Part shown: positions 11,768-54,600 of the stretch, piece after piece
How positions within the stretch are numbered: the stretch's first letter is position 1
Layout: every line of letters begins with the position of its first letter
Assembly (NCBI GenBank): GCA_947313825.1
Contig: CAMZNJ010000012.1
Span: forward strand, 1-61,628
Origin: an uncultured Deferribacteraceae bacterium
Lineage (GTDB): Bacteria > Chrysiogenota > Deferribacteres > CAMZNJ01
DNA: 61,628 bases
Reading direction: 5' to 3'
The notes under the pieces: model-generated
The model's input: only the letters and a program-made list of their open reading frames with translations
Databases searched by the model: none
What the model was told of the DNA's origin: nothing
Translations under genes and position numbers: made by a program

Positions 11768-13306
11768 GTGCTGGTTATGCGTAGCAACAACAAAAATAAC
11801 TCAACTGAGGGCAAAAACACTACTTCACGCCCTGACCCCTCAGAGAACCTGTTCAACGCTGACGACCGCGAATACAGCACCTCAAATACCTCAACACACA
11901 CTACTAATGAAAAAGCGAAAGGACAATCGCAAACCCTAACTCGCATCATCTACACCACACTATTCGCACTATCCATCGTCGTAATCGTCCTGCTGTACCT
12001 ACAATACAAAACCTCCAAAGAGCTCGCCTCACTATCGCAAAACAGCAGCCTCATCTCACAAGTCCAACTCCTCGACTCCCCACCTGTTACCTCCAACATT
12101 ATCTTTCAGGCGGTCAAAGGTGTGCTCATGGATCTCGGCGGCAACAACAACGACATTGTCATCTCCAAACTAGACGCCAGCCAAACACCACCCGTTGTAT
12201 GGGTCGACATTACCCTCCGTGGGGGGAGCACCAACGGCGACACGGAAGAGGCGGAACTACGCCATACATTTATCACCAACGTGGAAACACTCCTACTCCC
12301 CACAGGCGTTACCATCGAAGACAAAGGGTTCCAGATAGACGTCCGTGGTCCCGAGTACACCATCATCCTGTTGCTCAAAAATAACACAGGCGGAATCGTG
12401 CCCCATGACAACACAGGAGACATTGGCGAATACAGCAACATCACCGACGATATCTTCACCGACGCCACACCCACAAACACCACCACAAACATCACGGCGA
12501 ACGAAGAACTCAGCACAGCCTACCAAGAGTTTGCTCAATCCCTCACGCCAGCTCCCCCTGCAGGTAAATCCCTCGTATTTGTCATCGACGACTGTGGCTA
12601 CAGCGACAACCTCACCACCCGCGTAACCAACATCAACCGGAACCTCACCGTCGCTGTTATCCCCTTTTTGCGTCATAGCGTTTCCTCTGCCGAGATTGCA
12701 CGCAACAATGGCAACCCCGTATTCCTACACCTCCCCATGGAGCCCTACCATAACGCCCCCATCATGAACGACCTACAAAACAGACTCCTAGTCAACATGA
12801 CGGCGGACGAATGGACACACCTTGCAACCATCTCTGCAGAAAATATCGGTGGCATCGACGGCATCGGTGGCATCGACGGCTTCAACAACCACGAAGGCTC
12901 ATACTTCACCGAAGGGGTCGATCGAATGAGCACCGTTTTGCAAGCAATGGCTCCTTTTACTAATCTGTTTCTGGACTCACGAACATCATCCAAATCCGTC
13001 GGCTACAGCACCTGCAAGGGTATCCAAGGCTACAACTGTGCGTCAAACAACTGGTATCTCGACAACAACAACGATTACGCCTACATCTTTAACCAAACCT
13101 TAGGGCTCACCAAATCCAAACGCAAGGATACGGTTGTTATTGCCCACTGTCGCCCCAAAACCGTGGACGCCCTCGAGCTTGCCATCCCCCTCCTTGTGGA
13201 GAATGGTTACAGCATGGGAACGGTTCCACTAGTGTCGAAGCCTGCAACCACGCTCCCTGACAGTGGCATGAGCAACAGCGATAACAACAACGATAACAGC
13301 AACTAG
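11768..13306 (+). CDS. Divergent polysaccharide deacetylase family protein (YibQ-like) with long N-terminal TM/low-complexity region
   Basis: The C-terminal half matches the YibQ family pattern (LVFVIDDCGYS, LTVAVIPF, VFLHLPMEP, FNNHEGSYFTE, LFLDSRTS). It sits downstream of envC, as in the E. coli envC-yibQ arrangement. Contains an 18-nt in-frame duplication (IGGIDG x2) at 12845-12880. Confidence 0.75.
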   Translation: MLVMRSNNKNNSTEGKNTTSRPDPSENLFNADDREYSTSNTSTHTTNEKAKGQSQTLTRIIYTTLFALSIVVIVLLYLQYKTSKELASLSQNSSLISQVQLLDSPPVTSNIIFQAVKGVLMDLGGNNNDIVISKLDASQTPPVVWVDITLRGGSTNGDTEEAELRHTFITNVETLLLPTGVTIEDKGFQIDVRGPEYTIILLLKNNTGGIVPHDNTGDIGEYSNITDDIFTDATPTNTTTNITANEELSTAYQEFAQSLTPAPPAGKSLVFVIDDCGYSDNLTTRVTNINRNLTVAVIPFLRHSVSSAEIARNNGNPVFLHLPMEPYHNAPIMNDLQNRLLVNMTADEWTHLATISAENIGGIDGIGGIDGFNNHEGSYFTEGVDRMSTVLQAMAPFTNLFLDSRTSSKSVGYSTCKGIQGYNCASNNWYLDNNNDYAYIFNQTLGLTKSKRKDTVVIAHCRPKTVDALELAIPLLVENGYSMGTVPLVSKPATTLPDSGMSNSDNNNDNSN

Positions 13307-13319
13307 GACGGATATATTT

Positions 13320-14402
13320 GTGTCAACAAAGCAGTACTACTTAGGGATAGAAACATCGTGCGATGATACCGCCTTTGCCCTCTACCGAAGCACAGGCAAC
13401 GCGGGCAACGCGGGCAACACAGGCAACGTGAGCAACGCGGGCAGCATCGTTGCCTCAGGCGTCATCTCACAAGATGCAATACACTCTCAATACGGCGGTG
13501 TTGTTCCTGAAATCGCCTCCCGCAACCATATTCTAAAGCTCCAGCCCCTCTTTGCTCGCATTATGGCTGATGCCGGCATTACTCCTGGCCAAATTGATGC
13601 TGTTGGTGTTACCAATGGTCCCGGTCTTGTTGGCTCTATTTTCGTGGGTTTGAGTTATGCCAAGGGTCTGAGCTACGCCCTCAACATCCCCCTCTACCCC
13701 ATCAACCACATTTTAGCCCACGCCATGGTTACCATGCTTGACAACCCTTCATTGCGTTTGCCTTTTTTGTCATTGGTAATATCTGGTGGTCATACCCATA
13801 TTTTTTATATTTCTGAGTCGTACGAAATGCACCTAATCAGTCGCACAATCGACGATGCCCTTGGTGAGGCGTTCGACAAGGTTGCCAAAGGTATGGGTGG
13901 TCCCTACCCCGGTGGTCCTTATCTGGAGAGCCTTGCCAACACCATCAACAGCACGCCATTAAAGTTTACTCCCCCCATGCGTGGCAATAAGGATTTTTCG
14001 TTCAGCGGCTTGAAAACGGCGTCCCTTCTTGCTTACCAAAAGAACGAGCACTCCTTCAGCAACATCGATGCCCACGTTGCTTTGGCGTTTCACCAATGTG
14101 CTACCGCTTCCCTCACAGAGAAGGTTACCCACGGCGTTAATCTTGCTCGTGCAACCTATGGTCATGTTTCTAGCATGGTTGTGTCTGGTGGTGTTGCTTG
14201 CAACCGTCGCATTATTCAAGCTCTGGACGATCATGGCAAAACACTCCATCTCCATGTCTTTTTCCCGTCCCCCTACCATTCCACCGACAACGGCGACATG
14301 ATAGCTTACACAACCTACCTAATGGATACCTCGAAGTGTGTAACACCCCTAATGGGTGGCGACGCCATGGAGCTCAACGCCTATTCTAGCCTCCCGTCGT
14401 AG
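13320..14402 (+). CDS. tsaD: tRNA N6-adenosine threonylcarbamoyltransferase TsaD
   Basis: LGIETSCDDTA N-terminus, GVTNGPGLVGSIFVG and SGGHTH motifs, and VSGGVACN near the C-terminus. GTG start. Carries a 9-nt tandem-repeat insertion (GNAGNAGNTGNVSNAG). Confidence 0.9.
   Translation: MSTKQYYLGIETSCDDTAFALYRSTGNAGNAGNTGNVSNAGSIVASGVISQDAIHSQYGGVVPEIASRNHILKLQPLFARIMADAGITPGQIDAVGVTNGPGLVGSIFVGLSYAKGLSYALNIPLYPINHILAHAMVTMLDNPSLRLPFLSLVISGGHTHIFYISESYEMHLISRTIDDALGEAFDKVAKGMGGPYPGGPYLESLANTINSTPLKFTPPMRGNKDFSFSGLKTASLLAYQKNEHSFSNIDAHVALAFHQCATASLTEKVTHGVNLARATYGHVSSMVVSGGVACNRRIIQALDDHGKTLHLHVFFPSPYHSTDNGDMIAYTTYLMDTSKCVTPLMGGDAMELNAYSSLPS
13395..13443. repeat. In-frame 9-nt tandem repeat (GGCAACGCG) inside tsaD, about 5 copies
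   Basis: Read directly from the sequence: GGCAACGCG GGCAACGCG GGCAACACA GGCAACGTG AGCAACGCG. Encodes GNAGNAGNTGNVSNAG. Confidence 0.9.
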
Positions 14403-14408: not shown

Positions 14409-15566
14409 GTGTTGCAACTTTCAAAACACTTTGGCGTACAAAAACAAAACAAAAACAAGTATGGATACGTAAATAAAATGAGTAACACGAACACGAACAC
14501 GAACACAAACTACTTCCACAACCTACTACAAAGCGACGACCTTGTTGCCGCCCCTTTAGCTGGCGTAACCAACCGTGCTTTCCGCAATATTATTCGCAAC
14601 TACCATTCAGGGTTAATGTTCACCGAGATGATATCCGTTGAGGGTCTTGTTCGCCAAATACAAAAAACCCTCCACTACCTCTCCATCGACGCAAGTGAAG
14701 GGGACGTCCATGTTCAATTATTTGGTATGAATCCTGAAAGCTTCTCTGGTGCCGTACATGTTTGTGAGGATGGCTCTGAGGGGGAACACATCAAAGGGTA
14801 CAACGTAAACATGGGGTGCCCAGCGAAAAAGGTTTACAAAAAAGGTGGCGGTGCAGGACTTTTACGCGACACCAACACAATTGCAAAAATATGCCAACAC
14901 ATGCGTAAATCCACCACCAAACCCATATCCATAAAAATACGATTAGGGTGGGACAACAATAACATGGTGTATCGTGAAATACTGAACATCGCCGAAAATG
15001 AAGGGGTAAACGCACTCATCGTACACGCTCGTACACGCAAACAAATGTTCACCGGCGAACCCGTATACAGTGCGTTGGAAGAGCTTGCCCAAGATGCCAA
15101 AAACGTCGCACTCATCGGCAACGGTAACGTCTTCGATAGGGCAAGCTACCTACAAATCAAAAATACGGGGGTACAAGGGGTAATGATAGGACGTGGGATG
15201 ATGAAAAAGCCGTGGATTTTCCAAGCCATTAAAGCCCATGAAAACCCCGACACATACCTCGCACCAAAGGAGATATACAACCTACTGCAATCACTGGCAC
15301 AACACGAAACCGAACTCGCAACACGACGAAACGATCCCCATGGATACAACTTGGCTCTCATCAAAAAATACGCCGTGTGGTTTAGCAAAGGGCTAGCAAA
15401 CTCAGCCGAATTCCGTGGCAAGGTGTACGCGAAAATGTCTCCCGTGGAGAAAGCACTCGCAGCACGAGGGGGAACGCTAACACAGTCGTACCACGGCACA
15501 CCACAGTATGAGCAGGAAAAGGAGCAGTTTTGGCGTACCATGGACTACTACTTCAACGCCAATTAA
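14409..15566 (+). CDS. dus: tRNA-dihydrouridine synthase (Dus family)
   Basis: APLAGVTNRAFR, VNMGCPAKKV (catalytic Cys) and IVHARTR motifs. The start is uncertain: GTG at 14409 or ATG at 14479. The latter is followed by an (AACACG)n hexamer repeat encoding NTNTNTNTN. Confidence 0.85.
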   Translation: MLQLSKHFGVQKQNKNKYGYVNKMSNTNTNTNTNYFHNLLQSDDLVAAPLAGVTNRAFRNIIRNYHSGLMFTEMISVEGLVRQIQKTLHYLSIDASEGDVHVQLFGMNPESFSGAVHVCEDGSEGEHIKGYNVNMGCPAKKVYKKGGGAGLLRDTNTIAKICQHMRKSTTKPISIKIRLGWDNNNMVYREILNIAENEGVNALIVHARTRKQMFTGEPVYSALEELAQDAKNVALIGNGNVFDRASYLQIKNTGVQGVMIGRGMMKKPWIFQAIKAHENPDTYLAPKEIYNLLQSLAQHETELATRRNDPHGYNLALIKKYAVWFSKGLANSAEFRGKVYAKMSPVEKALAARGGTLTQSYHGTPQYEQEKEQFWRTMDYYFNAN

Positions 15567-15570
15567 TCAA

Positions 15571-15833
15571 CGTGCACCGCAACACCGCAACAACGCAACA
15601 CCGTGCACCGCAACACCGTGCACCGCAACACCGTGCACCGCAACACCGTGCACCGCAACAACGTGCAACGCAACACCGTGCACCGCAACAACGTGGCACC
15701 GCAACACCGTGCACCGCAACACCGTGGCAACGCAACACCGTGCACCGCAACAACGCAACAACGTGGCACCGCAACAACGCAACAACGTGGCACCGCAACA
15801 CCGTGCACCGTTGCAACGTTGCACCGTGGCACC
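15571..15833. repeat. Intergenic 15-nt minisatellite (GCACCGCAACACCGT and variants), about 17 copies
   Basis: Fills the whole convergent spacer from 5 nt after the dus stop (15566) to the base before the arcC stop (15834). A+C-rich on the + strand and open in all six frames. Confidence 0.92.
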
Positions 15834-16799
15834 CTAGCTCACAATATGCGTACCCGTCTCACCCCTCAACGCTTCATTGACCTTGCTTAGGGAGGTGATT
15901 AGTGCCTTGCGACCCTTTTTCGACTGCACAAACGCTGCACATGCCTCCACTTTTGGCAACATGGATCCTTTGGCGAAATGTCCTTGGGCAGTATACTCTT
16001 CTACTTCCTGCAATGTGAGGGTATTGAGCCATTTTTGGTTCTCCTTGCCGAAGTTGAGTGCTACTTTTTCCACCTCAGTAAGTATAACCAGTGTGTGTGC
16101 GTCTATGTTTTCCGCCAGTTTTGCCGACGCAAAATCTTTATCGATAACAGCTTCTACGCCGTCAAGGGTGGTGCCTTTTTTTACCACAGGCACGCCTCCC
16201 CCTCCAACGGCAATGACAGTTATGTTTTCGTCGAGCAGTGCTTTGATTGTGGCAAGCTCCACAATCTCCAGAGGCTTGGGGGATGCTATGACCCTGCGAA
16301 ACCCGCGACCGCTATCCTCCTTCATAACATACCCTTCGCTCCTTTCCAGTGCTTCTGCTTCAGATTTTGTGTAAAAAGGACCGATGGGTTTGGTAGGGTT
16401 GTTGAATGCCTCATCGTGGGGGTTCACCACCACCTGCGTAATCAATGAGCTCACTTCAGCTGCCATGGAGCGACGATTCAGCTCCCCCTTGAGTGCCTGT
16501 TGAATATGATAACCGAGCATACCCTGACTCATGGCACCACACACATCGAAAGGCATGGGTGGCGTAATCTCTTTGGCAGCCTCATTTTGCAACCCGATAC
16601 GCCCCACTTGAGGACCGTTGCCATGGGTAACCACAACCTTCATCCCCGCGGAAATCAATTCGGCAATATGCGTCATGGATGCTTCAATAACTTTCTTCTG
16701 ATTGTCAGCTGTGGGGGACGAACTATCCTCCAGTGCGTTACCCCCTAGGGCAACCACCACTGTTTGTGCAGTATTTTTCGACTGTTTTCCCATCTTCAT
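15834..16799 (-). CDS. arcC: Carbamate kinase
   Basis: 321 aa. VVVALGGNAL, VVTHGNGPQVG and VIAVGGGGVPV motifs. AAGGAG RBS. Last gene of an arcA-arcB-carrier-arcC cluster. Confidence 0.92.
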   Translation of the reverse strand: MKMGKQSKNTAQTVVVALGGNALEDSSSPTADNQKKVIEASMTHIAELISAGMKVVVTHGNGPQVGRIGLQNEAAKEITPPMPFDVCGAMSQGMLGYHIQQALKGELNRRSMAAEVSSLITQVVVNPHDEAFNNPTKPIGPFYTKSEAEALERSEGYVMKEDSGRGFRRVIASPKPLEIVELATIKALLDENITVIAVGGGGVPVVKKGTTLDGVEAVIDKDFASAKLAENIDAHTLVILTEVEKVALNFGKENQKWLNTLTLQEVEEYTAQGHFAKGSMLPKVEACAAFVQSKKGRKALITSLSKVNEALRGETGTHIVS

Positions 16800-20610: not shown

Positions 20611-20674
20611 ATATACTACTTCGTAAATAGTAGCATGTCAATATATACTACTTCGTAAATAATAGCATGTCAAT
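20611..20674 (-). promoter_or_regulatory. Tandemly duplicated sigma70-type promoter upstream of arcA (two 32-bp copies)
   Basis: Each copy reads, on the minus strand, TTGACA-N17-TAGTAT. The -35 boxes are at 20636-20641 and 20668-20673; the -10 boxes are at 20613-20618 and 20645-20650. The copies differ at one base. The spacer contains the inverted repeat CTACT-N8-AGTAG. Confidence 0.6.
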
Positions 20675-20738
20675 ATATTCTCTTGTTAGTTATGAGTGAA
20701 ACATATCCGAACCGAATAGTATTCGCAAACAAAAGCAC

Positions 20739-22328: not shown

Positions 22329-22422
22329 TTTTGCACACTCCTCCATTGGCTCTTTAATGCTTTGTGATTACTGAGTCATGGTTCATGGTTTCTGTTTTAG
22401 TCATTTTCTTTTGTTGGTTTGT

Positions 22423-22542
22423 GGTTCGTTCAAAGCATGGTTCGTTCGTTCAAAGCATGGTTCGTTCGTTCAAAGCATGGTTCGTTCAAAGCATGGTTCG
22501 TTCAAAGCATGGTTCGTTCAAAGCATGGTTCGTTCAAAGCAT
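22423..22542. repeat. Intergenic tandem repeat, 16/20-nt unit GGTTCG(TTCG)TTCAAAGCAT, 7 copies
   Basis: Read directly from the sequence. Lies between the usp stop (22545) and the start of the ABC ATPase gene (22328). Confidence 0.9.
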
Positions 22543-28134: not shown

Positions 28135-29508
28135 CTAACTATGCCCAAAACTTTCAATAGCCTCCACACCTTTGTTTAGTGCATGTTGAATAAGGTCGAA
28201 CTCCCTAGCTTCAATGGTTAATGGTGCCCAAAGGTACACAACATCCCCCAAAGGTCGTACAAACACGCCAGCCTCAACCATTGCATTTGTAAACACCTTT
28301 GCAAGCTCTGCGGCTCGCTCTCCACGTTGAACCGCCTTTGCCATACAGCCACCTTTTTCGGCAATACTCAGCTTCATCATCCCTACCATGCCTATTGTTT
28401 CATGTGCAACTCCCAACCTCTGTGCACAGTGGTGAATAATCCTCCGCAATTCTTTCCCATTCCCTTTCACCGTACTGTAAATATCATCTTTTTTGTAGAT
28501 ATCTAGAACAGCCAATGCAGCTTCACACGCCGATGGGTATCCGCCAAAGGTATGTGAGTGCCAAAAGATTTTATTTTCGAACGAATTGTAGACCCGTTCG
28601 TTAGCGATGGCGACGCTCATGGGTGCGTGTCCTGCTGTTAGAGCCTTTCCTAGCACAAGGATATCGGGCACAACGTTACTGTGATTGCATGCGAATAGTT
28701 CCCCTGTTCTGTAGAAGCCCACGGCGATTTCGTCTGCAATGAGGAGGATGTTGTAGTCATCACACACCTTTCGCAATTTGGTCATGTATTTGGCTGGTGA
28801 TATTTTCACACCACCAGCCCCTTGCACCATGGGTTCGATGATAATTGCTGCTACTTCGCTGTGGTATTTTGTTACAATTTGTTTCATGCTGTGGAAGCAC
28901 TCCACGTTGCATGTTTTCGGTTGCTGTCCGTGTGGGCACTGTAGGCAGTTGGGGGATTCGGCAACATGGGCACGATTTACAACTTCAGCGAGTGGTTCGT
29001 GGAATGATTCGAGGAACCCCACACCAATTGCTCCCATTGTGTCGCCGTGGTATGCATCTTGCAGTGCTATGAACCTATTTTTCCCCTGCACGCCAATATT
29101 TGTCCAATACTGAATAGCCATACGCAGGGCAGCTTCCACAGCACTGGCTCCATCGCTAGCGTAGAAGGAGTGGTTTAGGGATCCGGGTGTGATGTTGGCA
29201 AGTTTTTGTGAGAGCTCGATTACGCTGGGGTGTGCCATCCCCCCTAGTATTACGTGTTGTTTGGTTTTGAGTGAGTTTATCATCCGTTCCACAATTTCAC
29301 TACGGGAGTGCCCGAGAGATACGCACCACCATGACGATATTCCGTCGAGTAGTTTGCGTCCGTCAGTGGTGTGCATGTAAAACCCTTGTGCACGTTCGAT
29401 AATGGGGTAGTTTGTTTGTTTGAATTGGGTCATGTTTGTGTCGGGGTGCCATGTGAGGTTGCTTGCGTGTGTTGGTGTTGGTGCTGGTGTTGGTGTTTCG
29501 TTGTTCAT
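28135..29508 (-). CDS. bioA: Adenosylmethionine-8-amino-7-oxononanoate aminotransferase
   Basis: Class-III aminotransferase. SSWWCVSLGH, DEIAVGFYRTGELFA and the PLP-lysine region LGKALTAG. The start is probably the ATG at 29508 (GGAG 7 nt upstream); the maximal ORF reaches 29574 and would overlap bioD. Confidence 0.9.
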   Translation of the reverse strand: MNNETPTPAPTPTHASNLTWHPDTNMTQFKQTNYPIIERAQGFYMHTTDGRKLLDGISSWWCVSLGHSRSEIVERMINSLKTKQHVILGGMAHPSVIELSQKLANITPGSLNHSFYASDGASAVEAALRMAIQYWTNIGVQGKNRFIALQDAYHGDTMGAIGVGFLESFHEPLAEVVNRAHVAESPNCLQCPHGQQPKTCNVECFHSMKQIVTKYHSEVAAIIIEPMVQGAGGVKISPAKYMTKLRKVCDDYNILLIADEIAVGFYRTGELFACNHSNVVPDILVLGKALTAGHAPMSVAIANERVYNSFENKIFWHSHTFGGYPSACEAALAVLDIYKKDDIYSTVKGNGKELRRIIHHCAQRLGVAHETIGMVGMMKLSIAEKGGCMAKAVQRGERAAELAKVFTNAMVEAGVFVRPLGDVVYLWAPLTIEAREFDLIQHALNKGVEAIESFGHS

Positions 29509-29521
29509 CGCCATACTCCAC

Positions 29522-30403
29522 TCATATGGATTTCGTTGTTGCCCTATTGATGGCTGCGAATAGCTTGTCGCCATGTGTTATTATTGTTGTATTGCCGTGC
29601 ATCTTGGTGCCGTGCACCTTGGTGCCGTGCACCTGTGCAATGCATGGTATTCCCGAAAAGTTTTCGATGGTTTGAATGTTGTCTTGGTGCCGTGCAACAG
29701 TTGCGTGCTGTGCATCTTGGTGCTGTGCAACAGTTGCGTGCTGTGCATCTTGGTGCTGTGCATCTTGGTGCTGTGCATCTTGGTGCCGTGCATCTTGGTG
29801 CCGTGCATCTTGGTGCCGTGCATCTTGGTGCCGTCGTGCATCTTGGTGCTGTGCATCAGTTGCGTGCTGGTGGGGGATATGGTTCGCCACAAACCCCATG
29901 ATACTCACCTCACGTCTAATATTGTGCATTGCACTAAGTGTGGCGATGGTACTGTGTATTGCTCCTAGTTTGTTGTTCATCACCACAATTGCGGGTATCT
30001 CCATGAGTGCAATCAGGTCGATATTGAGTGTGCCTTCGTCCATTGGTGAGCAAGCCCCCCCTGCCCCTTCCACAATCACAATATTGTGTTTGTTTTCGAG
30101 GTATTTGTAGCATTGCACAATGTGCTCCATGGATATGGTTGTTGCGTCCTTTTCCATTCTTTGTGCCAAGTGTGGTGAAACTTCGTGTGCAAAGTTGTAG
30201 GGTATATTTTCGTGCAACGGTGGTGTGTTTTGCCCTATCACTGTTTGGTAGTCGGTTGTGTTTCCGGTTTTGTTTACCCCTGTTTGCACAGGTTTCATGT
30301 ATGCTACAGTTAGCCCTTTCTGAGTGAGGTGGTTGTAGAGAGCCTTTGCGAACACTGTTTTGCCCACATCCGTTCCTGTGCCTGTTATGAATACTCCAGC
30401 CAT
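29522..30403 (-). CDS. bioD: Dethiobiotin synthetase with tandem-repeat insertions near the C-terminus
   Basis: P-loop FITGTGTDVGKTV, then VIVEGAGG and NIQTIENFSGIPCIAQV tail motifs. GAGGTG RBS 6 nt upstream of the ATG at 30403. About 60 extra residues (HQDAR)n and (HGTKV/M)n are inserted. Confidence 0.88.
   Translation of the reverse strand: MAGVFITGTGTDVGKTVFAKALYNHLTQKGLTVAYMKPVQTGVNKTGNTTDYQTVIGQNTPPLHENIPYNFAHEVSPHLAQRMEKDATTISMEHIVQCYKYLENKHNIVIVEGAGGACSPMDEGTLNIDLIALMEIPAIVVMNNKLGAIHSTIATLSAMHNIRREVSIMGFVANHIPHQHATDAQHQDARRHQDARHQDARHQDARHQDAQHQDAQHQDAQHATVAQHQDAQHATVARHQDNIQTIENFSGIPCIAQVHGTKVHGTKMHGNTTIITHGDKLFAAINRATTKSI
29594..29636. repeat. In-frame 15-nt repeat in bioD (array A), coding-strand unit CACGGCACCAAGATG/GTG encoding HGTKM/V
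   Basis: Read directly from the sequence. The translated segment is VHGTKVHGTKMHG. Confidence 0.85.
29682..29868. repeat. In-frame 15-nt repeat in bioD (array B, with 18-nt variants), same unit read as CACCAAGATGCACGG encoding HQDAR/Q
   Basis: About 8 copies of GTGCATCTTGGTGC(C/T) on the + strand plus three 18-nt variants. The translated segment is HQDARRHQDARHQDARHQDARHQDAQHQDAQHQDAQHATVAQHQDAQHATVARHQD. Confidence 0.9.
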
Positions 30404-30413: not shown

Positions 30414-31304
30414 TCATTTTTGTGCAATAATAAACAGTACGTTGTAGGATAGTGCCACGGCGGGCACACCGTTTACGTTGGCGTTGTTTGCCCCCAAGAA
30501 CATTTCGTCGTATTTTTGTAGAAACGTTTTGCGGTAGGTTATTTCTGCCAATGATTCTGTCTTTTGTGTTGAGGGTGGTGTTGAGGGTGGTGTTGATCCC
30601 ACGTTTTTCATGGATTTTAGGGCATCCAGCCCTGAGGGGAATAGTGGCGAAAAGCCCTGACGTGTGTGCAGTTTCGGAATAAACCCACACTCTATTACAC
30701 TTTTCATAACATTATCGCTGCGTGGAAATTCTAACATGGGGAGTTGTTCCCCTTCAGGTAGAGTTTTGTTGACTTCGCTAATCTCTTTGAGGGAGCCGTC
30801 AACGGGCAAGGCAACCACGAGTAAGCCTCCATCTTTCAGGAGTTTGTATGCTTTTTCGAAAAAACCGTGAATATCCTGCAACCAGTGTGCTGAAAAGCTA
30901 CTTGTAACAATATCTTGGGTATCTTGCATACTTTTGTCCACCTGATAGTGGTCAAAATCTGCCACAGCAAACTGCCATTGAGGTTTGAATTCGTCAAACT
31001 TTGCGACACATTCAGCCACCATTTCGGAAGCGATATCCAAACCCAAAACACTAGGTTGGGCGTCCTCATCTAGCAAACCTTTTATGGCCAACATATGCAC
31101 AATGGATTGAATGCAAAACCCTGTTCCACACCCTATGTCCACCATGGCAAAGTTGCTGTCTAGGGGGAGGCTATTGCGGACAATGGCGGTGTACATGTAG
31201 CTTGCCAGCACCTCCGAAACATGGTACTGCAAGTGTGCTGACTCATCATACCCTTTTGCATGTTTGTTGAAGCTTTGTGCTATTTTGTGTTTATTTAAGT
31301 CCAT
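30414..31304 (-). CDS. bioC: Malonyl-[ACP] O-methyltransferase
   Basis: KIAQSFNKHAKGYDESAHLQ N-terminus typical of BioC and SAM motif VDIGCGTGF. Positioned between bioH and bioD. Contains an in-frame 12-nt repeat (STPP x2). Confidence 0.82.
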   Translation of the reverse strand: MDLNKHKIAQSFNKHAKGYDESAHLQYHVSEVLASYMYTAIVRNSLPLDSNFAMVDIGCGTGFCIQSIVHMLAIKGLLDEDAQPSVLGLDIASEMVAECVAKFDEFKPQWQFAVADFDHYQVDKSMQDTQDIVTSSFSAHWLQDIHGFFEKAYKLLKDGGLLVVALPVDGSLKEISEVNKTLPEGEQLPMLEFPRSDNVMKSVIECGFIPKLHTRQGFSPLFPSGLDALKSMKNVGSTPPSTPPSTQKTESLAEITYRKTFLQKYDEMFLGANNANVNGVPAVALSYNVLFIIAQK

Positions 31305-32022
31305 AAAAACTCGATACCTCGTTGAATATTAACTCGTGCTGAGGTAGTAGGTTGTGTCCGGCGTTTTCAACGGCACAAACCTTACACCTAGTGGCATCAT
31401 CTTTCGCAATACTTTCAGTATACAGAGCCATTTCGAAGGGTGCAACCCTGTCGCTGTCGCCATGGATAATCAGAATACTCCTCCCCGCAAGCATCCCACG
31501 AGCATCACCAGTGCTCAGGAAGTCCAGTCCGTCGTAGAGGTGGTTGACGCTGAGCCCCATACATGAGCGTATGAAGTCATCCTGCCAGTTAATACCATGG
31601 GAATCATGGGAGTCATCACTAAACCCCAGCTTAGCAAAACCCTTTGCCACAGCTTTCTTGGATATTCTGAGTCCCATCATCATGGTGCCCAACGCAGAAG
31701 CATCAACCCCCACAGCACCATCCTCGTCCCCCTTGATGTACTTCACAAAGCTCGACACCAACACAACATTTTTCACAGGGGTATGCAACGCTAGCAAACC
31801 ACCAAGAGACCAACCCATAAGAATGTCCACATCACTAAACATTTGAGACAAAGCCTCTGTATCGTTTGATTTTATGGCGTGCAAAACATCAACCCACGGG
31901 AAATACTGCACCTCAATATTTTCAACACCACCATCCGCAACAGCAAAGTCGGACAACGCATTCATAAACGGCAATGAAAACTTCTCATCACTACCCCACC
32001 CTGAAATAAAACCTACTCTCAT
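31291..32022 (-). CDS. bioH: Pimeloyl-[ACP] methyl ester esterase (BioH-like alpha/beta hydrolase)
   Basis: 243 aa. Nucleophile elbow GWSLGG identical to E. coli BioH, then HGDSDRVAP and GHNLL (catalytic His region). Sits between bioF and bioC. GAGGTG RBS. Confidence 0.72.
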   Translation of the reverse strand: MRVGFISGWGSDEKFSLPFMNALSDFAVADGGVENIEVQYFPWVDVLHAIKSNDTEALSQMFSDVDILMGWSLGGLLALHTPVKNVVLVSSFVKYIKGDEDGAVGVDASALGTMMMGLRISKKAVAKGFAKLGFSDDSHDSHGINWQDDFIRSCMGLSVNHLYDGLDFLSTGDARGMLAGRSILIIHGDSDRVAPFEMALYTESIAKDDATRCKVCAVENAGHNLLPQHELIFNEVSSFYGLK

Positions 32023-32061: not shown

Positions 32062-33399
32062 CTAACGCGTCGAACCAGAACTCTTCGCAATAGCTTGAAC
32101 AACACTATGGGCAATCTCAGCCAGCTGCCCCTCGTCAAACCCCAAGGTAATGGAAAACCGCAAGCGAGCTCCATGAAGGGGCACAGTTGGATAACGAATA
32201 GCACGAACATGCACGCCAGACTCACCCAACAACCGACTCAAAGCAACAGCACGATCATTATCGTACACCATAATTGGCACAATTTGCGACGAAAATGCCA
32301 GCAACATCGGCTCTGTACCATCCGTCGCAGTACCGCTCTCCTCCTCAACGCGAAGTCCAGCATCCATTAGCATACCGTGAAACATCTTAGCTCGCAACAT
32401 CAATTCCTCACCCATGGTCAATTCTTCACCCATGGTTATGGTTGAAGTGGAAGACACAATCTCTAAAGCACCAATGGACGACGCAACAACAGACGGTGGC
32501 AACGACGTGGAGAAAATAAACGTACGCATGGTGTTCAGCAGGTATTCGCGTACAAGGTGGGAGCACGAGATGAAACCACCGTACGACGCATAAGCCTTGC
32601 TCAAGGTGCCAACAACAATGTAGGGACGCACACCCATCTCCACACACAAACCACCACCAACACCACCAGCACCAGCATCAGCATCAGCACCACCAACACC
32701 AACACCACCAACACCAACACCAGCACCAGCACCACAAATACCCATGGCGTGGGACTCATCAACAATCATCTTAGCACCGTACATGGTTGACAACCGTTGC
32801 AAAGCCACCAGATCTGCCCTATCACCATCCATGCTGAAAATGCTATCGGTAACAATATAAATGTTCTCATACTTCGACGCAACACGACGAAGAGACTCTT
32901 CCAAGACATGATAGTTTTTATGGGGGAAACTTTTCCACTTGCAACCGCTATGCAGTATGCCATCCAGCAGGCTCGCATGGTTGAGTTTGTCGAAAAATAC
33001 GTAATCGGACTTGCCAAGCAAAGCAGTGAGCAAGCCATAGTTCGCAAGGTAACCGCTACCCACAAGGAGCGTACTCGGGAACCCTGTTAACACAGCGAGA
33101 CGCTCCTCCAACTCACCATGCAAAGGGGTCGCACCACCCATAAGACGCGAACCACCGGAACCAACACCATACATCGCCATGGCATTCGAAGCACACTCTT
33201 GTAAATAGGGGTGATGAATAAGGTTGAGGTAATCGTTGCAGGAGAGGTTGTACTTGGTCGCCCCCTCCGCCTCAGGAGCATCCGCCTCAGAAACACTCAC
33301 ACCACCCGTAAAAGGTAGCTCATGAATATTTCGCAAGAGCCCCTTACGCGTCATGGAGTTGATTCGTTCACGTAAGTTTTCATCACTGCTGATCGCCAT
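32062..33399 (-). CDS. bioF: 8-amino-7-oxononanoate synthase with G/A/V/D-rich repeat insertion
   Basis: NDYLNL, GSGGSRLMGG, VDESHAMG and the PLP-lysine motif GTLSKA. GGGGG RBS 6 nt upstream of the ATG at 33399 (MAISSDENL); the maximal ORF extends to 33558. Confidence 0.88.
   Translation of the reverse strand: MAISSDENLRERINSMTRKGLLRNIHELPFTGGVSVSEADAPEAEGATKYNLSCNDYLNLIHHPYLQECASNAMAMYGVGSGGSRLMGGATPLHGELEERLAVLTGFPSTLLVGSGYLANYGLLTALLGKSDYVFFDKLNHASLLDGILHSGCKWKSFPHKNYHVLEESLRRVASKYENIYIVTDSIFSMDGDRADLVALQRLSTMYGAKMIVDESHAMGICGAGAGVGVGGVGVGGADADAGAGGVGGGLCVEMGVRPYIVVGTLSKAYASYGGFISCSHLVREYLLNTMRTFIFSTSLPPSVVASSIGALEIVSSTSTITMGEELTMGEELMLRAKMFHGMLMDAGLRVEEESGTATDGTEPMLLAFSSQIVPIMVYDNDRAVALSRLLGESGVHVRAIRYPTVPLHGARLRFSITLGFDEGQLAEIAHSVVQAIAKSSGSTR
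32651..32733. repeat. In-frame hexamer-based repeat (CACCAA/CACCAG/CATCAG on + strand) inside bioF
   Basis: Encodes GAGAGVGVGGVGVGGADADAGAGGVGG on the minus strand, between DESHAMG and the PLP-lysine motif. Confidence 0.85.
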
Positions 33400-33735
33400 G
33401 GTCAACCCCCTGCTCATCAAAAATATATTGTACCATTTAACCAGATAATAAAGAAGACAAGAAAAAAGGAGTGCCCCAGAAATAACTCCGAAACACTCCT
33501 GATTCAAGGTATGGCAGGCTTCCCACATAACCCCCACAGCTATCCATGGGGAGCCCATCTAGATCGGCATCAGAGGCGTATCACCCCTGTAGCCATTACT
33601 AGCAATTAATATGTCCAGTGTGGTGAGGCGGACACTGTACCCGTACGCACTAGCACAACCATGGCACTAACAAATACGAACAGTCGCCCCCCCTATTCCA
33701 CACCGGAAACGTTAACCATCTGCCCAAAGGCTTGG

Positions 33736-36174
33736 TTAAGATGTTATCAAGCTCAAAGCTGTTTGAGGTAGTGCTTTGGCTTGTGCGAGCATGGCCGTTG
33801 CGGCCTGTTGTAGTACTTGGTTACGCGTAAACAGAGTTGTTTCAGCCGCAATATCCGCATCCATTACTCGCGAATTCGCCGCCGTAAGGTTCTCACGCAT
33901 AATATCCAAGTTGCTCACAGTGTAGGTAATACGACTCATTTGGGCACCGATTGTTGCCCTTGTTGAGTTCACCCGCGTTAGGGCATTGTCAAACAGACTA
34001 ATCGCCTGCTCAGCAACATGTTGATCGTAAACATACGCCCCAGATAGTTGCAACGACTCGATGGTCATCTCAGGGATGGACACACTCATGGTTTGTCCAG
34101 CATTTGCCCCAATATGGAGATCAGTTCTGTTGTCCACAAGGTGGAGGTAGAAGTTATCCTTTGAGCCAGTGCTTGTGTAGTCGATGAGTCCGCTATTTGG
34201 GTTGTAGGAGGCTATCAGTCCAGCAGTTGAGTCCACTTTGAGCATTACACCTTGGATATTTGGGGGGAAGAGGAATCCCGATGTTGTGGAATCTGAGGAT
34301 TGGTGCTTGCCCGTGTGTGCGTCGTAAACATCGATGAACAAACGCGACTCCGCTTCGTTTATCACCGAGCCGAAACTAAACGCATCCACAATATCGCTGT
34401 TGCCTACAACAGATATTCGGGAATTCGCACCCAAACCTGCTGCCTGCATAATAAACGTACCCGGAATCTTAGCAATATCACCAACCTTATTGAGATCGGT
34501 AACAAACTTAACCAAGTTTTTGTTAATCTCATCGGCAGCAGCTTGCGAACCTGCTGTTTCCCTAGTGGCACCAAGTCCCATCTTTTGGAGAAGGTTTGTC
34601 AACAGGTCATCCACCTCAAAGAGGGTATCGTTCCCCTCGAGGAATACCTCCTCTTTGGAGCCATTCCCGCCGTAAAGTGTTAACGTTTGCACAATATCCA
34701 TGATATTGAGCCCATTGGCATTGCGAAAACTTGCCAGCTGATTGAGGGTTGTGCTCTCTGTGGCAACCTCGCCACCGCCGTTAATAAAGTAGGTGGACGT
34801 ACCGGGGATAGTACCAACAGCTGTGGTTATCTCGTTGAAGTACATTTCAGCAGCTGTGTAGCGAACTGTTCCTGTGGAGGGATCCATAATTGCGTAGTGC
34901 AGTTGCACCCGTGCCAAATCATCTTTCCCATCGTTGTTGTCGAACATGCCCAGCTCTTGAGGCAGATACTCAACTTGAGGTGTGGACGCCGTGCCTGCCG
35001 GTGTTCCGTTAATGGCAAACCCTGTTTCACTACCGTTGTTGGCAATGTTAATTACACCACCACCTGTAAGCAGTCTGTCAGCATTAGCTGCAATCTCTGC
35101 CTGAACAGTGTTCAAAAACTTTGTACCAGGCTCAATCAGTGTCGGAACAGTTGTGCTCACACTACTTATGCTAAAGTTAATCCTAAACGACGAAACACCT
35201 GTTATTGTTACCTCAAACGACGACTTACCAACAATACTAGCCGAGGCATCAAGTGTGCCCGATTTAACCTCGCCTGTTTTTGAGTCAGTAAACTTGTAGC
35301 GAATAGTTTCCACTGCCGAAGCACCGCCAGAAGTCTTATTGCCAGACATGGTAACAACCTCGTACTCGAAATAACCACTCCTGTCCACAGAGCCAGTAAC
35401 TGCAGTAACTGTAGCAGAAGTCGCAACATCGATGCTTCGTCCAGCGAGGTACATGGAAACGTTATCCGTACTTGCAGCAACAGCACCAGTAGGGTTGCTA
35501 ACATTGATATCGTAGGTTCCGCCATTGGTGGAAAAATCCTGATCGCGAAGGGTACGAACGTACGCCAACGAGCCGTTTTGTGTTGCTAAGCCAGCGGCAA
35601 ACTGACCCTCAGCAAGTTGCATAATGTGGGATTTATACACAGCCGAAGACCCCGGCTCAGTATTGACGGCAATACGATAGTTGCCCTCCTTTACCTCACC
35701 AGTAATTAACGCCTCAACCCTGCTACTACTACTTGACCACAGAGCTGTTGCATCGCCGTTCAGTAATTTCTTGGTGTTGAATTCCACGGAAACCGTAACA
35801 CGATTCATCTCGTCCTTGAGCTGATCAACCTCTTTCTGAAGCTCTGCCCTATCTGATGTGGTGTAGGTTCCGTTGGCTGCCTGAATAGACAACTCACGCA
35901 TGCGGAGAATCATATCTCCAAGTGCCTGCAAACCGCCCTCTGCTACTTGCAACATGGACAAACCATCTTGTGCGTTCCTGTTGGCAACACTCAAGCCGTT
36001 TATCTGACTCTCCAACCGCTTGGATACCGCCAAGCCAGAAGCGTCATCAAGAGCACTGTTAATACGTAGGCCGGATGATAAACGCTGAATCGACTGATCC
36101 AACATGGACTGCGATCTGGTCAGACTGTTTTGTGCCGTAATGGCAAGGGGGTTACTATAAATACGTAAAGCCAT
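33736..36174 (-). CDS. fliC: Flagellin, giant type (812 aa) with about 540-aa central hypervariable region
   Basis: Canonical flagellin N-terminal D0/D1 (RLSSGLRINSALDDASGLAVSKRL...NAQDGLSMLQVAEGGL) and C-terminal D1/D0 (ATIGAQMSRI...NSRVMDADIAAETTLFTRNQVLQQAATAMLAQAKALPQTALSL). GGAGG RBS. Confidence 0.92.
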   Translation of the reverse strand: MALRIYSNPLAITAQNSLTRSQSMLDQSIQRLSSGLRINSALDDASGLAVSKRLESQINGLSVANRNAQDGLSMLQVAEGGLQALGDMILRMRELSIQAANGTYTTSDRAELQKEVDQLKDEMNRVTVSVEFNTKKLLNGDATALWSSSSSRVEALITGEVKEGNYRIAVNTEPGSSAVYKSHIMQLAEGQFAAGLATQNGSLAYVRTLRDQDFSTNGGTYDINVSNPTGAVAASTDNVSMYLAGRSIDVATSATVTAVTGSVDRSGYFEYEVVTMSGNKTSGGASAVETIRYKFTDSKTGEVKSGTLDASASIVGKSSFEVTITGVSSFRINFSISSVSTTVPTLIEPGTKFLNTVQAEIAANADRLLTGGGVINIANNGSETGFAINGTPAGTASTPQVEYLPQELGMFDNNDGKDDLARVQLHYAIMDPSTGTVRYTAAEMYFNEITTAVGTIPGTSTYFINGGGEVATESTTLNQLASFRNANGLNIMDIVQTLTLYGGNGSKEEVFLEGNDTLFEVDDLLTNLLQKMGLGATRETAGSQAAADEINKNLVKFVTDLNKVGDIAKIPGTFIMQAAGLGANSRISVVGNSDIVDAFSFGSVINEAESRLFIDVYDAHTGKHQSSDSTTSGFLFPPNIQGVMLKVDSTAGLIASYNPNSGLIDYTSTGSKDNFYLHLVDNRTDLHIGANAGQTMSVSIPEMTIESLQLSGAYVYDQHVAEQAISLFDNALTRVNSTRATIGAQMSRITYTVSNLDIMRENLTAANSRVMDADIAAETTLFTRNQVLQQAATAMLAQAKALPQTALSLITS

Positions 36175-36444: not shown

Positions 36445-37389
36445 CTACTTCACAAATATGGCAGCATCGCAAGCACCAAACATAATACTATGATGAGACG
36501 ACGACGCAAACCCCGCCGCCAAACCCAACTTGTCAAACTCGCTACGACTAGGGTAAAACGCGACCGACTCAGGCAAATAACGGTACGCATCACCATCACC
36601 ACGAGAAAAAATAGACGCAACACGAGGCATAATCTTGCCAAAATACAACTTATGCACAAAAGACATGGGCTGACGAGACGGTATACGTATATCTAAAATG
36701 CAAAACTTACCACCCGGAACAAGCAAACGATAACACTCTGACATCACTGCCGACTTATCAGGCATGTTGCGAATACCGTAAGCAACCGTTATCATATCAA
36801 AACTAGAAGCAGGGAAACTCGTGGAAGTCGCATCCATCAAATGGAAACGCAAATGGGGATAGTTCGCCTTAGCAACTGAAAGCATACCCTCAGAAAAATC
36901 CAAACCATCAACATTAGCATCACCAACATGGGACGCAATCAAAGTTGTCAACGCACCTGTACCGCAAGCAAGATCAAGAACCTTGTCGCCAGGGCTTATA
37001 CCCGCTTTTCGTAAAAAAATGTTGCGGAAAATATTGTCCATGTTGAATGATATGAGGCGATTAAGGCGATCGTAACGACCTGAGATACGGTTAAACATGT
37101 CCTGAACATACTCAGCATCGCCATGGCGAATCTGAATGCTTGCACCCGTGGTGCTCGCATCTGTGGTGCTCGAACCCGTGGTTCTCGAACCCGTGGTGCT
37201 CGAACCCGTGGTGCTCGAACCCGTGGTGCTCGAACCCGTGGTGCCCGCATCTGTGGTGCCCGCATCTGTGGTGCTCGAACCCGTGGTGCTTGCATCTGTG
37301 GTGCTTGCATCTGCGGTGCTTGCACCCGTGGTGCCCGAACCTGTGGTTCTTGCACCACCTTCACCATTATTTAAACTATCCCGTGCCAT
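36445..37389 (-). CDS. ubiE: Demethylmenaquinone / ubiquinone biosynthesis C-methyltransferase with repeat-encoded N-terminal extension
   Basis: VQDMFNRISGRYDRLNRLISF (UbiE signature region), SAM motif VLDLACGTG and AYGIRN. The about 85-aa N-terminal extension (STTGS)n has no internal Met before the conserved domain. Confidence 0.85.
   Translation of the reverse strand: MARDSLNNGEGGARTTGSGTTGASTADASTTDASTTGSSTTDAGTTDAGTTGSSTTGSSTTGSSTTGSRTTGSSTTDASTTGASIQIRHGDAEYVQDMFNRISGRYDRLNRLISFNMDNIFRNIFLRKAGISPGDKVLDLACGTGALTTLIASHVGDANVDGLDFSEGMLSVAKANYPHLRFHLMDATSTSFPASSFDMITVAYGIRNMPDKSAVMSECYRLLVPGGKFCILDIRIPSRQPMSFVHKLYFGKIMPRVASIFSRGDGDAYRYLPESVAFYPSRSEFDKLGLAAGFASSSHHSIMFGACDAAIFVK
37138..37352. 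repeat. In-frame 15-nt tandem repeat (GCTCGAACCCGTGGT on + strand), about 14 copies, at the 5' end of ubiE
   Basis: Read directly from the sequence. Encodes (G/A/D)(S/T)TT(G/D) pentapeptides: TTGSSTTGSSTTGSSTTGSRTTGSSTTDASTTGAS and similar. Confidence 0.92.
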
Positions 37390-42680: not shown

Positions 42681-43640
42681 CTACTGCTGAGCTTGAAGGG
42701 TGTTGAAAACAGTGGACAGCATGGAGTCCATCCCACTAAGGGGAACCATGTTCGCACCATCAGACAGAGCCGAATCAGGGTTTGGGTGAGTCTCAAAAAA
42801 GAACCCCTTGATACCAATGGCTGCGGCCATATTAGCATAATACGGAACATACTCCCTGTTGCCACCAGAGGAATCCCCCAATGAGGACGGCTTCTGCACA
42901 CTGTGGGTCGCATCTAAAATCAGGGGAACACCAGCCAACGACGCCATGTTGCCCATGTCGATCAAATTGCGAAAATCAAGAACCAGATCACCGTACCCCA
43001 TCATAGTGCCACGCTCAGTAAGCATAACCTTGGAGTTACCGCTCTCGATAACCTTTTGAACAGGGTTGACCATGTTGGTGCCACTCAAAAACTGTGCCTT
43101 CTTGATATTCACAATTGCACCCGTCTTCGCCGACGAAACAAGAAGATCGGTTTGACGACATAAAAATGCCGGTATCTGAATAATATCAGCAACCTCAGAG
43201 ATAGCACCTGCCTGATGGCTCTCGTGAATATCCGTAACAATGGGGACGCCAAACTGTGTCTTTATTTTGGACAACACCTCCAAACCTGCCTCCAGCCCCG
43301 GACCACGATGGGAGTTAATCGATGTGCGGTTCGCCTTGTCGAACGAACTCTTGAACACATAAACAAACCCGTATCTACTGGAAAGCTCTAGCATCTCCTC
43401 GCAAACTTGGCTCATGATGTCGTAATCTTCGATGACACAAGTGCCCGCAAGAATAAAGGGGCGACTTTGTAGCTTAGCGTAAAGGGAGTCTAGGCTCGCC
43501 ATGCTTCTCCCGTTGTTGCCGCTCCCGTTGTTGCCGCTCCCGTTACCGCTACTGTTGCCGCTACTGTTGCCGCTCCCGTTACCGCTACTGTTACTACTAC
43601 CGTTACCGTTACCGCTACTGTTACTGCTACTATGCATCAT
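42681..43640 (-). CDS. kdsA: 2-dehydro-3-deoxyphosphooctonate aldolase (KDO-8-P synthase)
   Basis: Colinear with E. coli KdsA: FKSSFDKANRTSI, HRGPGLEAGL, IVTDIHE, IQIPAFLCRQTDL, LTERG, DATHSVQ, FETHPNPD. Two plausible starts exist. The ATG at 43640 (GAGGT RBS) includes an S/G/N repeat tail; the ATG at 43502 (GGGAG RBS) excludes it. Confidence 0.9.
   Translation of the reverse strand: MMHSSSNSSGNGNGSSNSSGNGSGNSSGNSSGNGSGNNGSGNNGRSMASLDSLYAKLQSRPFILAGTCVIEDYDIMSQVCEEMLELSSRYGFVYVFKSSFDKANRTSINSHRGPGLEAGLEVLSKIKTQFGVPIVTDIHESHQAGAISEVADIIQIPAFLCRQTDLLVSSAKTGAIVNIKKAQFLSGTNMVNPVQKVIESGNSKVMLTERGTMMGYGDLVLDFRNLIDMGNMASLAGVPLILDATHSVQKPSSLGDSSGGNREYVPYYANMAAAIGIKGFFFETHPNPDSALSDGANMVPLSGMDSMLSTVFNTLQAQQ
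43503..43634. repeat. 12-15-nt tandem repeat at the 5' end of kdsA (encodes S/G/N-rich tail if translated)
   Basis: + strand units CCGTTGTTGCCGCTC / CCGTTACCGCTACTGTTGCCGCTA. The translated tail would be SSGNGNGSSNSSGNGSGNSSGNSSGNGSGNNGSGNNG. Confidence 0.85.
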
Positions 43641-48549: not shown

Positions 48550-48871
48550 TTTCGTAACGTACGCAACCGCGACCAACGTACGAAACTGCGACCGAGGCAC
48601 ACGCACACTAACGTACACGAACGCATGCAACTGCGATCAACTAACGTACGCGAAACCGCAACCGAGGTACACGTACACTAACGTACGCAACCGCATGCAA
48701 CGTACACGACCGCGACCAACGTACACGTACGCAACCGCGACCAATGTACACGTACACTAACGTACGCGAGACCGCGACCGAGGCACACGTATACGCACAC
48801 TAACGCATGCAACTGCGATCAACTAACGCACACGACCGCAACCGAGGCACACGCACGCAACGTACACGCAA
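48550..48871. repeat. About 320-bp A+C+G-rich nested minisatellite block
   Basis: Short motifs (ACGTACAC, CGCAACCGCGACC, CGACCGAGGCACACG, CACTAACG) are organised in a higher-order unit seen twice (about 48588-48680 and 48771-48860). Occupies the spacer between the LolA-like gene stop and the first permease gene. Confidence 0.85.
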
Positions 48872-49925: not shown

Positions 49926-50467
49926 CGTGAGCTGTACTAATTATAAGTGTTCCTCGGGCTCGTGTCAAGGGAATATTGTGCCCTAGCACACAGTAAAGCA
50001 AGCTCCCCAACTTTGCTCTGTAAAGCAGTAATCTGCCTGTAAATAGGCACCCTACTGCCGTACTTGAACTACGCGATAATCTACTATTTGTAGCAAAATT
50101 ATCCCATGAGTACTGCAAATATGCCCTCGAGCAAGTCAGGCCTCGAGCAAGTCAGGGTTGGTAGCTCACAATTCGGCTCATCACCAATTAATAATATACT
50201 ATGCAATTTGCCCTTAGTCAACAATAAAAAATATTTCCTGAATACTTCTCTGATACTTAATATTTTTACTATTCGCTTTTGCACCGAGACGCAACTATGT
50301 GCTTAGAGTTTAGTCGCCACACACCTTCATTGGTTCTTTATTTTTTCTGTTTACGTGGCATATTTTTTGCTCAACAAACTCTATGACGCGTCCCTTACGC
50401 TATTGAATATATCTCAAGGTTCTGGTATGATCCTCTCAAGTGATTATCTCAGCTTGGTGCATAAATT

Positions 50468-52698: not shown

Positions 52699-52755
52699 AA
52701 AAAAGACGCCTTGCCTGTATTATGAAATGAATAAGTAACACCGAATACGAATCAT

Positions 52756-53631: not shown

Positions 53632-53698
53632 CCCCCCAACAACAGCAATAACACACAGCCCCACCTAACACATATTTATAGCAAACAGAGGCACACGA

Positions 53699-54598: not shown

Positions 54599-54600
54599 AC

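Follow-up and report, generated by a model that had tools for sequence, protein, structure and literature searches.

How can one 15-nucleotide (nt) unit be translated in two different reading frames within a single uninterrupted gene? The question is raised by bioD, the predicted dethiobiotin synthetase (DTBS) gene on a 61,628-nt contig (CAMZNJ010000012.1, assembly GCA_947313825.1) of an uncultured Deferribacteraceae bacterium, a close relative of Candidatus Rimicarispirillum, the gut symbionts of Rimicaris vent shrimp; the whole of this stretch is hereafter called the window. An initial annotation of the locus described two tandem arrays of the unit, here termed array A and array B, and took them as signs that a repeat family selected to be free of stop codons had invaded, or expanded at, two sites. 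Our analysis favors another account, in which the arrays are probably neutral or tolerated in-frame coding variable-number tandem repeats (VNTRs), that is, minisatellite-type tandem duplications within a functional enzyme. Housekeeping genes throughout this genome, moreover, carry an excess of in-frame repeats, to which the arrays belong.

Codon-by-codon reading of the minus strand confirmed that the same unit is used in two frames within bioD. The encoded product runs, in order, through MAGVFITGTGTDVGKT, GFVANHIP(H), array B, DNIQTIENFSGIPCIAQ, array A and NTTIITHGDKLFAAINRATTKSI, after which comes the stop codon, and the 882-nt open reading frame (ORF) is uninterrupted throughout; its start was placed at the ATG of MAGVFITGTGTDVGKT, following the orthologue of the closest relative. 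In array B the codons are C(A/G)G-CAC-CAA-GAT-GCA and give (Q/R)HQDA, and in array A they are (G/A)TG-CAC-GGC-ACC-AAG and give (V/M)HGTK. Both units are rotations of one cyclic 15-mer, CACGGCACCAAGATG, with at most one mismatch, and their codon boundaries differ by one nucleotide. Tandem Repeats Finder (TRF) reported array A, at 29594-29634, as 2.8 copies of period 15 (96% matches, score 77), and array B both as 11.1 copies of period 15 (score 229) and as 5.9 copies of period 33 (score 246). At up to two mismatches, the window holds 13 matches to the 15-mer against an expectation of 0.16, a number reached by none of 100 shuffles, and 11 of the 13 fall within bioD.

The initial description of array B as a pure (HQDAR)n repeat proved to be wrong. 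The array is a composite of about eight 15-nt units (four RHQDA and four QHQDA, one of which contains an additional CGA codon), three 18-nt units, CAG-CAC-GCA-ACT-GTT/GAT-GCA (QHATVA/QHATDA), and an incomplete unit at the end; it is this mixture of 15-nt and 18-nt units that produces the higher-order period of 33 nt.

The two registers can be traced to the junctions between the arrays and their flanks. Arrays A and B are separated by 45 nt, as the initial annotation had estimated, and this inter-array segment corresponds to a native helix and beta-strand that set the reading frame for both flanks. It aligns to residues 187-206 of the solved Francisella DTBS structure 3of5 and contains N242, a residue that is nearly invariant across BioDs. 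Site B has the layout TTGCAC + (AGCACCAAGATGCAC)n, and site A the layout TTGCAC + AGATGCAC + (GGCACCAAGATGCAC)n. The eight extra nucleotides at the site A junction (8 mod 3 = 2) therefore shift the unit by one nucleotide relative to the codons, and as a consequence one unit yields (Q/R)HQDA at site B and (M/V)HGTK at site A. The octamer TTGCACAG precedes both arrays, encoding the native I-A-Q at site A and the V-A-Q end of an 18-nt unit at site B. Each unit has two CAC triplets that lie in different frames, so that one histidine is encoded per five residues in both translated registers. None of the six cyclic frames of the unit contains a stop codon, and ORFs of the six-frame translation extend across the array region, in agreement with the phantom ORFs remarked upon earlier.

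Despite these additions, bioD is predicted from its sequence to encode a functional dethiobiotin synthetase and not to be a pseudogene. The product matches Pfam AAA_26 (PF13500; E=2.8e-40, 138.7 bits against a cut-off of 27) and NCBIfam TIGR00347 bioD (130.5 bits against a cut-off of 83.3), as well as solved DTBS structures (PDB 3of5/1dts). In an alignment of 65 BioDs, every invariant or near-invariant column is present, including the P-loop GxxxxGKT, K37, EGAGG and N174. The gene lies within a biotin operon on one strand, in the order bioF, bioH-like, bioC, bioD, bioA, and this order is repeated at the orthologous locus of the closest relative (locus L001). Between the window and L001, the ratio of nonsynonymous to synonymous substitution rates (dN/dS) is 0.33 for bioD and 0.13 for bioA. 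A dN/dS of 0.33, an intact ORF in both full-length copies and the retention of invariant residues argue for purifying selection on bioD, and a frameshifted pseudogene, which the initial annotation had named as an outcome that would overturn its reading, is not borne out.

To place the arrays within the enzyme, spacings were measured in the alignment, which comprised the BioD of the window, the two relatives returned by a homologue search (one close, P0002, and one distant, P0003) and 62 other BioDs. Between N174 and N242, where site B lies, the window has 67 residues, compared to a median of 13 (range 10-16) in the 62 other BioDs; in the tail after N242, where site A lies, it has 51 residues, compared to a median of 37. 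The corresponding values are 26 and 66 residues in P0002, and 31 and 35 in P0003. The extra length noted at the outset is thus real, and its estimate of about 60 residues is corrected to about 54 at site B and about 14 at site A relative to the homologue median. Site B falls after the GFVAN strand, between the beta-strand that ends at N174 and the next helix, where the 3of5 alignment passes directly from residue 177 of the chain to residue 187; site A is flanked by the last beta-strand and the C-terminal helix. The outgroup P0003 (33% identity; locus L003) is repeat-free at both sites; its loop at site B is longer and non-repetitive, which shows that this site is permissive. These comparisons support the earlier proposal that both arrays are lineage-specific additions, at surface loops, to an otherwise canonical BioD.

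An AlphaFold model of the protein is consistent with this placement. The model has a mean predicted local distance difference test score (pLDDT) of 86.9 and a predicted template modeling score of 0.83, its core is confident and DTBS-like, and its best Foldseek matches are 3of5, 1dae and 1dts (TM(target) 0.77-0.81). Array A is modeled as a loop, with pLDDT below 50 for residues 263-270, and the inter-array segment is modeled with pLDDT above 90. Array B is modeled as a helical extension that projects from the core, with pLDDT of 52-68 in its first half and 81-92 in its second half; residues 210-250 form one long helix that runs into the native helix (pLDDT 81-92 for residues 211-240), although the alignment is nearly uninformative for this insert, so that the helix is effectively a single-sequence prediction and is used with caution. 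Together, the alignment and the model support exposed, permissive surface positions for both arrays.

We then compared the arrays between relatives, as the initial annotation had recommended. P0002 is the BioD of L001 (GCA_947313805.1), a locus that shares synteny with positions 36184-27815 of the window at 83-87% nt identity, the synteny spanning all 8.6 kb of L001. A scan for two tandem units in one representative genome per species (185,579 species, one related metagenome-assembled genome (MAG) included) returned a single locus, L002, which carries the orthologous bioD of the uncultured Deferribacteraceae bacterium M_Rainbow_MAG_00001 and is 91% identical to L001 at the nucleotide level; the pattern was found nowhere else in this collection. 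M_Rainbow_MAG_00001 is a gut symbiont of Rimicaris exoculata assigned to Candidatus Rimicarispirillum, family Microvillispirillaceae (PMC9636832).

Both sites carry arrays in all three genomes, and their copy numbers differ. Compared to the window, L001 has a single 15-nt copy and three 18-nt units at site B but 5.7 perfect copies at site A, and L002 has at least ten 15-nt units at site B, all with CAG, and 2.6 copies at site A. Site B thus ranges from one to at least ten 15-mers and site A from 2.6 to 5.7 copies, which supports the conclusion that each array gains and loses copies independently of the other. The length differences at both sites are always multiples of 3, and the frame relationship is identical in the three genomes; the ORF is open to the conserved C-terminus ITHGDKLF in the window and L001, and the partial ORF of L002 is open as well. 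Because both sites carry arrays in all three lineages and the outgroup is without them, the arrays are placed by sequence comparison before the split of the three sampled lineages. Between the site B copy of L001 (TGCACAGCACCAAGA) and the site A unit, 14 of 15 positions agree. At L002 (L002 5134-5293, on the 53-kb contig CAMZNS010000021.1), the contig stops inside array B and bioD is truncated in M_Rainbow_MAG_00001, from which it follows that such arrays break short-read assemblies. A third in-frame repeat, GACGCAGACATA x 2 (DADIDADI), is present in the BioD of L001 (L001 6110-6133), and the window is without it.

The bioD arrays therefore have the attributes by which coding VNTRs are recognized: at least two head-to-tail copies beyond chance, units that are multiples of 3 (15, 18 or 33 nt) with the ORF kept, and copy numbers that differ between related genomes, as read from MAG assemblies. 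We infer that, at two surface sites that tolerate insertion, slippage during replication or unequal recombination would create the arrays and alter their length, that both would derive from one local 15-nt motif, and that they are neutral. Since the enzyme is under purifying selection, the length changes that survive would be limited to multiples of 3, and no special property of the unit would be required. The 14/15 match of the single copy in L001 far exceeds chance, which argues that sites A and B are related by descent. Local seeding of one site from the other may have occurred through template switching or ectopic recombination on shared microhomology, and an origin of both sites from one ancestral motif is possible. 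Of the initial suggestion of independent invasion or expansion at two sites, the independent expansion is upheld by the three genomes, and invasion is not, the unit being found only in bioD across the window, L001, the one related MAG and the metagenome contigs searched.

Several points weigh against this VNTR account or soften parts of it. The copy numbers are uncertain, as the contigs are metagenome-assembled, probably from short reads, and the 188 nt of array B exceed a typical short read; the statement that the unit is not dispersed rests on one related MAG and about 75 kb of sequence. With respect to the route between the two sites, seeding, ectopic gene conversion and descent from an ancestral motif are all possible. 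Four CGG (Arg) copies in array B of the window are identical to the array A unit, and L001 and L002 have only CAG, so that the CGG copies could stem from conversion by array A or from an A-to-G transition that spread. Neutrality is assumed, and it has to be set beside the persistence of the arrays in three lineages, the histidine in each pentapeptide of both frames, and the fairly confident helix modeled for the second half of array B.

Tandem repeats were surveyed across the window and compared to a control, 50 kb of E. coli K-12 around the bio operon. TRF returned 92 rows with scores up to 315 in the window, and 16 rows with a best score of 51 in the control. About 18 arrays, each built from a unit of its own, lie in frame within roughly 15 of 50 ORFs, and the genes affected include bioF, bioC, bioA, menG/ubiE, kdsA and dut (Table 1). 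The units in these housekeeping genes are unrelated to one another, with periods of 6-45 nt, and orthologous arrays in L001 vary in copy number relative to the window; in bioF, a repeat insert splits the profile match into two stretches. Arrays with periods that are not multiples of 3 lie outside the ORF set, except for that at 15568-15826, which lies in a doubtful 116-aa ORF. The bioD arrays are one instance of a genome-wide in-frame repeat excess in housekeeping genes, and it could be argued that this wider pattern is of greater interest than bioD alone. The pattern points to a lineage-wide mutational or population-genetic cause, for example a high rate of slippage or weak purifying selection in a symbiont confined to its host, and the presence of separate arrays in many other genes argues against a function specific to bioD.

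Table 1. Coordinates in the window of bioD, its two arrays, the neighboring biotin genes and other in-frame arrays.
Feature	Position	Strand	Basis or description
bioD (dethiobiotin synthetase, 293 aa)	29522..30403	minus	882-nt ORF, profile matches
Array B (residues 179-241)	29682..29869	minus	TRF periods 15 and 33, codon listing, N174-N242 spacing
Inter-array segment NIQTIENFSGIPCIAQ	29637..29681	minus	Conserved, non-repetitive; aligns with all BioD homologues
Array A (residues ~258-270)	29594..29636	minus	TRF period 15, pattern matches, codon listing
bioA	28135..29514	minus	Directly downstream of bioD; TIGR00508 428.8 bits
bioA in-frame hexanucleotide repeat (TPTPAPTPT)	29469-29497		TRF; longer in L001 orthologue
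bioC	30414-31304	minus	In-frame repeat 30566-30596; NCBIfam 101.6 vs cut-off 185
BioH-like esterase	31291-32022	minus	NCBIfam 47.1 vs cut-off 207
bioF	32062-33558	minus	In-frame repeats 32400-32436, 32650-32742; NCBIfam 319 vs cut-off 426
menG/ubiE in-frame array	37137-37356		N-terminal repeat extension of ~73 aa on MenG/UbiE methyltransferase
kdsA in-frame array	43507-43631		
dut in-frame array	52898-53179		~148-aa extension ahead of Dut domain
Further in-frame arrays	5696-5767, 12845-12880, 13391-13443, 54536-54579, 55032-55081, 55581-55610		

Other features of the region were recorded alongside this survey. The array at 15568-15826 is the strongest in the window (260 nt; period 15 x 15.6 copies or period 31 x 8.4 copies; TRF 300-315) and lies between the convergent ORFs 14409-15566 (plus) and 15834-16799 (minus); its unit, CGTGCACCGCAACAC, is the least distant from that of bioD, with a marginal 5/15 mismatches. 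Arrays at 4213-4321, 20611-20678, 22422-22542, 48556-48757, 50125-50156 and 61326-61490 fall outside the greedy ORF set and are probably intergenic, with periods that are mostly not multiples of 3 (25, 32, 16 x 7.1 copies, 19/25 and 16) and one of 51. Downstream of bioA, L001 carries a hexanucleotide array, (ACCAGC) x 31.7, that covers 190 nt (L001 8143-8332). The coding strands of the window are rich in A+C and poor in T, for example at 52001-60000, and the sign of the skew reverses with gene orientation; in the 2-kb window at 56001-58000 the GC skew is -0.45 and the AT skew +0.44. The outgroup bioD (L003) is without this coding-strand bias. Finally, a flagellin gene adjoins the bio operon both in the window (33736-36174, minus) and in L001 (11-2455); at 812-814 aa it is unusually large for a flagellin and has a big central region, and the L001 homologue has Flagellin_N and Flagellin_C domains.

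Could the unit instead come from a 15-nt family, mobile or dispersed and under selection to lack stops, that invaded two sites of bioD independently? Its occurrence at two separate sites in two frames, its lack of stops in six frames and the abundance of tandem arrays in this genome, several of them of period 15, would fit such a family. The searches speak against it. Outside bioD, the unit was found neither in the 61.6-kb window nor in L001 or L002, neither the unit nor the conserved spacer had a match in Joint Genome Institute (JGI) metagenome contigs, and the tandem pattern occurred at one locus of the genome collection, the bioD of M_Rainbow_MAG_00001. The other 15-nt arrays of the window show no kinship to the unit, at distances of 5-7/15 that lie in the random range when rotation and strand are disregarded; the closest, at 15571-15810, is in the 2% tail at 5/15 and is not convincing. 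Stop-freeness is itself unexceptional, since all six cyclic frames are free of stops in 23% of 15-mers drawn uniformly at random, in 28% of those matched for composition and in 31% of actual 15-mers taken from neighboring genes. The bioD coding strand consists of 35.4% A, 26.8% C, 22.0% G and 15.9% T, and stops are rare in any frame because it is so poor in T. Selection for stop-free units, as proposed in the initial annotation, was therefore rejected. DNA folding compared to shuffles likewise did not mark the arrays as inverted repeats or hairpins (z = +1.05 for array B and a marginal z = -2.2 for array A, the latter reflecting only a small stem in the GTG variant), and slippage driven by hairpins was not retained. 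With only the bioD locus found in the sequences searched, one related MAG among them, a dispersed family of the REP or MITE type (repetitive extragenic palindromic or miniature inverted-repeat transposable elements) was rejected, and the invasion reading, largely refuted, is the least probable that we considered. An artefact is scarcely more credible, whether as a short-read misassembly of the arrays or their frame relationship or as a decaying bioD. The termination of the L002 contig within array B, the length of that array relative to short reads, and an exact-protein lookup in which no other assembly had a record of the identical BioD would each fit an artefact. Yet three independent assemblies have arrays at the same two sites in the same frame relationship, the conserved flanks share one frame within an unbroken ORF, the catalytic motifs are intact under a low dN/dS, and the operon is syntenic across the whole of L001.

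More credible than these, though still unlikely, is the idea that the arrays are selected modules: His/Asp-rich metal-binding or interaction arms, or 'tuning knobs' for biotin output to the host, with the use of two frames kept because both yield a His-containing pentapeptide. Both arrays have been kept in frame in three lineages at 83-91% nt identity, the regular histidines recur in either register, residues 210-250 are modeled as a long helix continuous with the native one, and biotin synthesis has been noted as a possible service of the symbionts to their host (PMC9636832, PMC10344455). Against selection stands a copy number that appears unconstrained at either site, with no compensation between A and B, as well as the absence of arrays from the outgroup and the 62 other BioDs. 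Unrelated housekeeping genes carry arrays of their own, which indicates a mutational rather than a gene-specific cause; the H, Q, T, N, K and A content of the inserts tracks the A+C-rich bias of the coding strand; and the helix is, as noted, effectively a single-sequence prediction. That the inserts have some function at all we regard as improbable to much the same degree. Slightly more doubtful again is a wider proposal, in which a lineage-wide mutational or selective regime in the Rimicaris gut symbionts (Candidatus Rimicarispirillum/Microvillispirillaceae) would seed and maintain in-frame minisatellites in a large share of housekeeping enzymes, with the bioD arrays, which carry His in both registers, acting as appendages with a role in enzyme tuning or in metal binding in the metal-rich vent/gut habitat.

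Among known systems, the closest category is that of in-frame coding VNTRs or minisatellites, known from bacterial genes, multiple-locus VNTR analysis (MLVA) typing and many surface proteins. As in these, the bioD arrays consist of head-to-tail units that are multiples of 3, vary in copy number between close relatives while the frame is kept, lie in exposed parts of the protein under low constraint, and presumably change by slippage or unequal recombination. Unlike the usual coding VNTRs, they reside in a small cytoplasmic biosynthetic enzyme rather than in a surface or secreted protein, and two arrays of one DNA unit lie 45 nt apart in different codon registers. Like phase-variable contingency loci, the arrays are hypermutable tandem repeats within a gene of a bacterium that lives in association with a host. 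In contrast to such loci, however, every unit in bioD is a multiple of 3 inside the coding sequence, and since units of 15 and 18 nt never shift the frame, on/off switching is impossible. Recombination between arrays A and B was rejected as a route to phase variation as well: equivalent units are 65 + 15k nt apart, which is never a multiple of 3, and an A-B deletion would be an irreversible knockout rather than a switch, because the frame would be lost and an essential beta-strand removed.

Genomes of the Plasmodium falciparum type combine compositional bias with lineage-specific low-complexity or repeat inserts in the surface loops of housekeeping proteins. The bioD arrays resemble these inserts in being lineage-specific, non-globular, repeat-rich and quick to vary in length, with amino acids that mirror the nucleotide bias. 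They differ in that the Plasmodium case involves extreme AT-richness and homopolymer runs, whereas here a bacterial symbiont with an A+C-rich, T-poor coding strand carries minisatellites of 6-51 nt. Frameshifted translations are known often to retain tandem repeats as different peptide repeats (Osmanli et al., FEBS J 2025, PMC12871928), and bioD follows the same principle, in that periodicity is held in the DNA and another frame gives another peptide repeat. Unlike that study, which set reference proteins against hypothetical +1/-1 translations, both registers of bioD occur in one uninterrupted ORF; the offset comes from the junction between array and flank, with no frameshift mutation, and a conserved in-frame segment lies between the arrays. 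We found no discussion of gene-internal tandem repeats in two papers on the Rimicaris Deferribacterota MAGs (PMC9636832, PMC10344455). Taken together, these comparisons make the bioD arrays a further example of a known feature, in which the use of two registers is neat but mechanistically unremarkable.

As a single locus, bioD is a curiosity. A small enzyme is seen here to accommodate about 70 additional residues in two loops beside conserved structural elements, and the placement of the array junction is enough for a single DNA unit to become fixed in two codon registers with no frameshift. More useful is the broader pattern: an uncultured lineage of vent-shrimp symbionts carries fast-evolving in-frame repeats in many core genes. 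For MAG assembly, this means that contigs break at such arrays, as at L002. For annotation, bioC, the BioH-like gene and bioF all score below curated cut-offs, and automated calls may under-call the biotin pathway in this lineage. The arrays are also usable as VNTR markers for typing strains of symbiont populations across vent fields and hosts. With regard to genome evolution, the pattern bears on drift or repair deficiency in host-restricted bacteria and, should the symbiont minisatellite regime outlined above prove true, it would represent a bacterial counterpart of the low-complexity inserts of Plasmodium.

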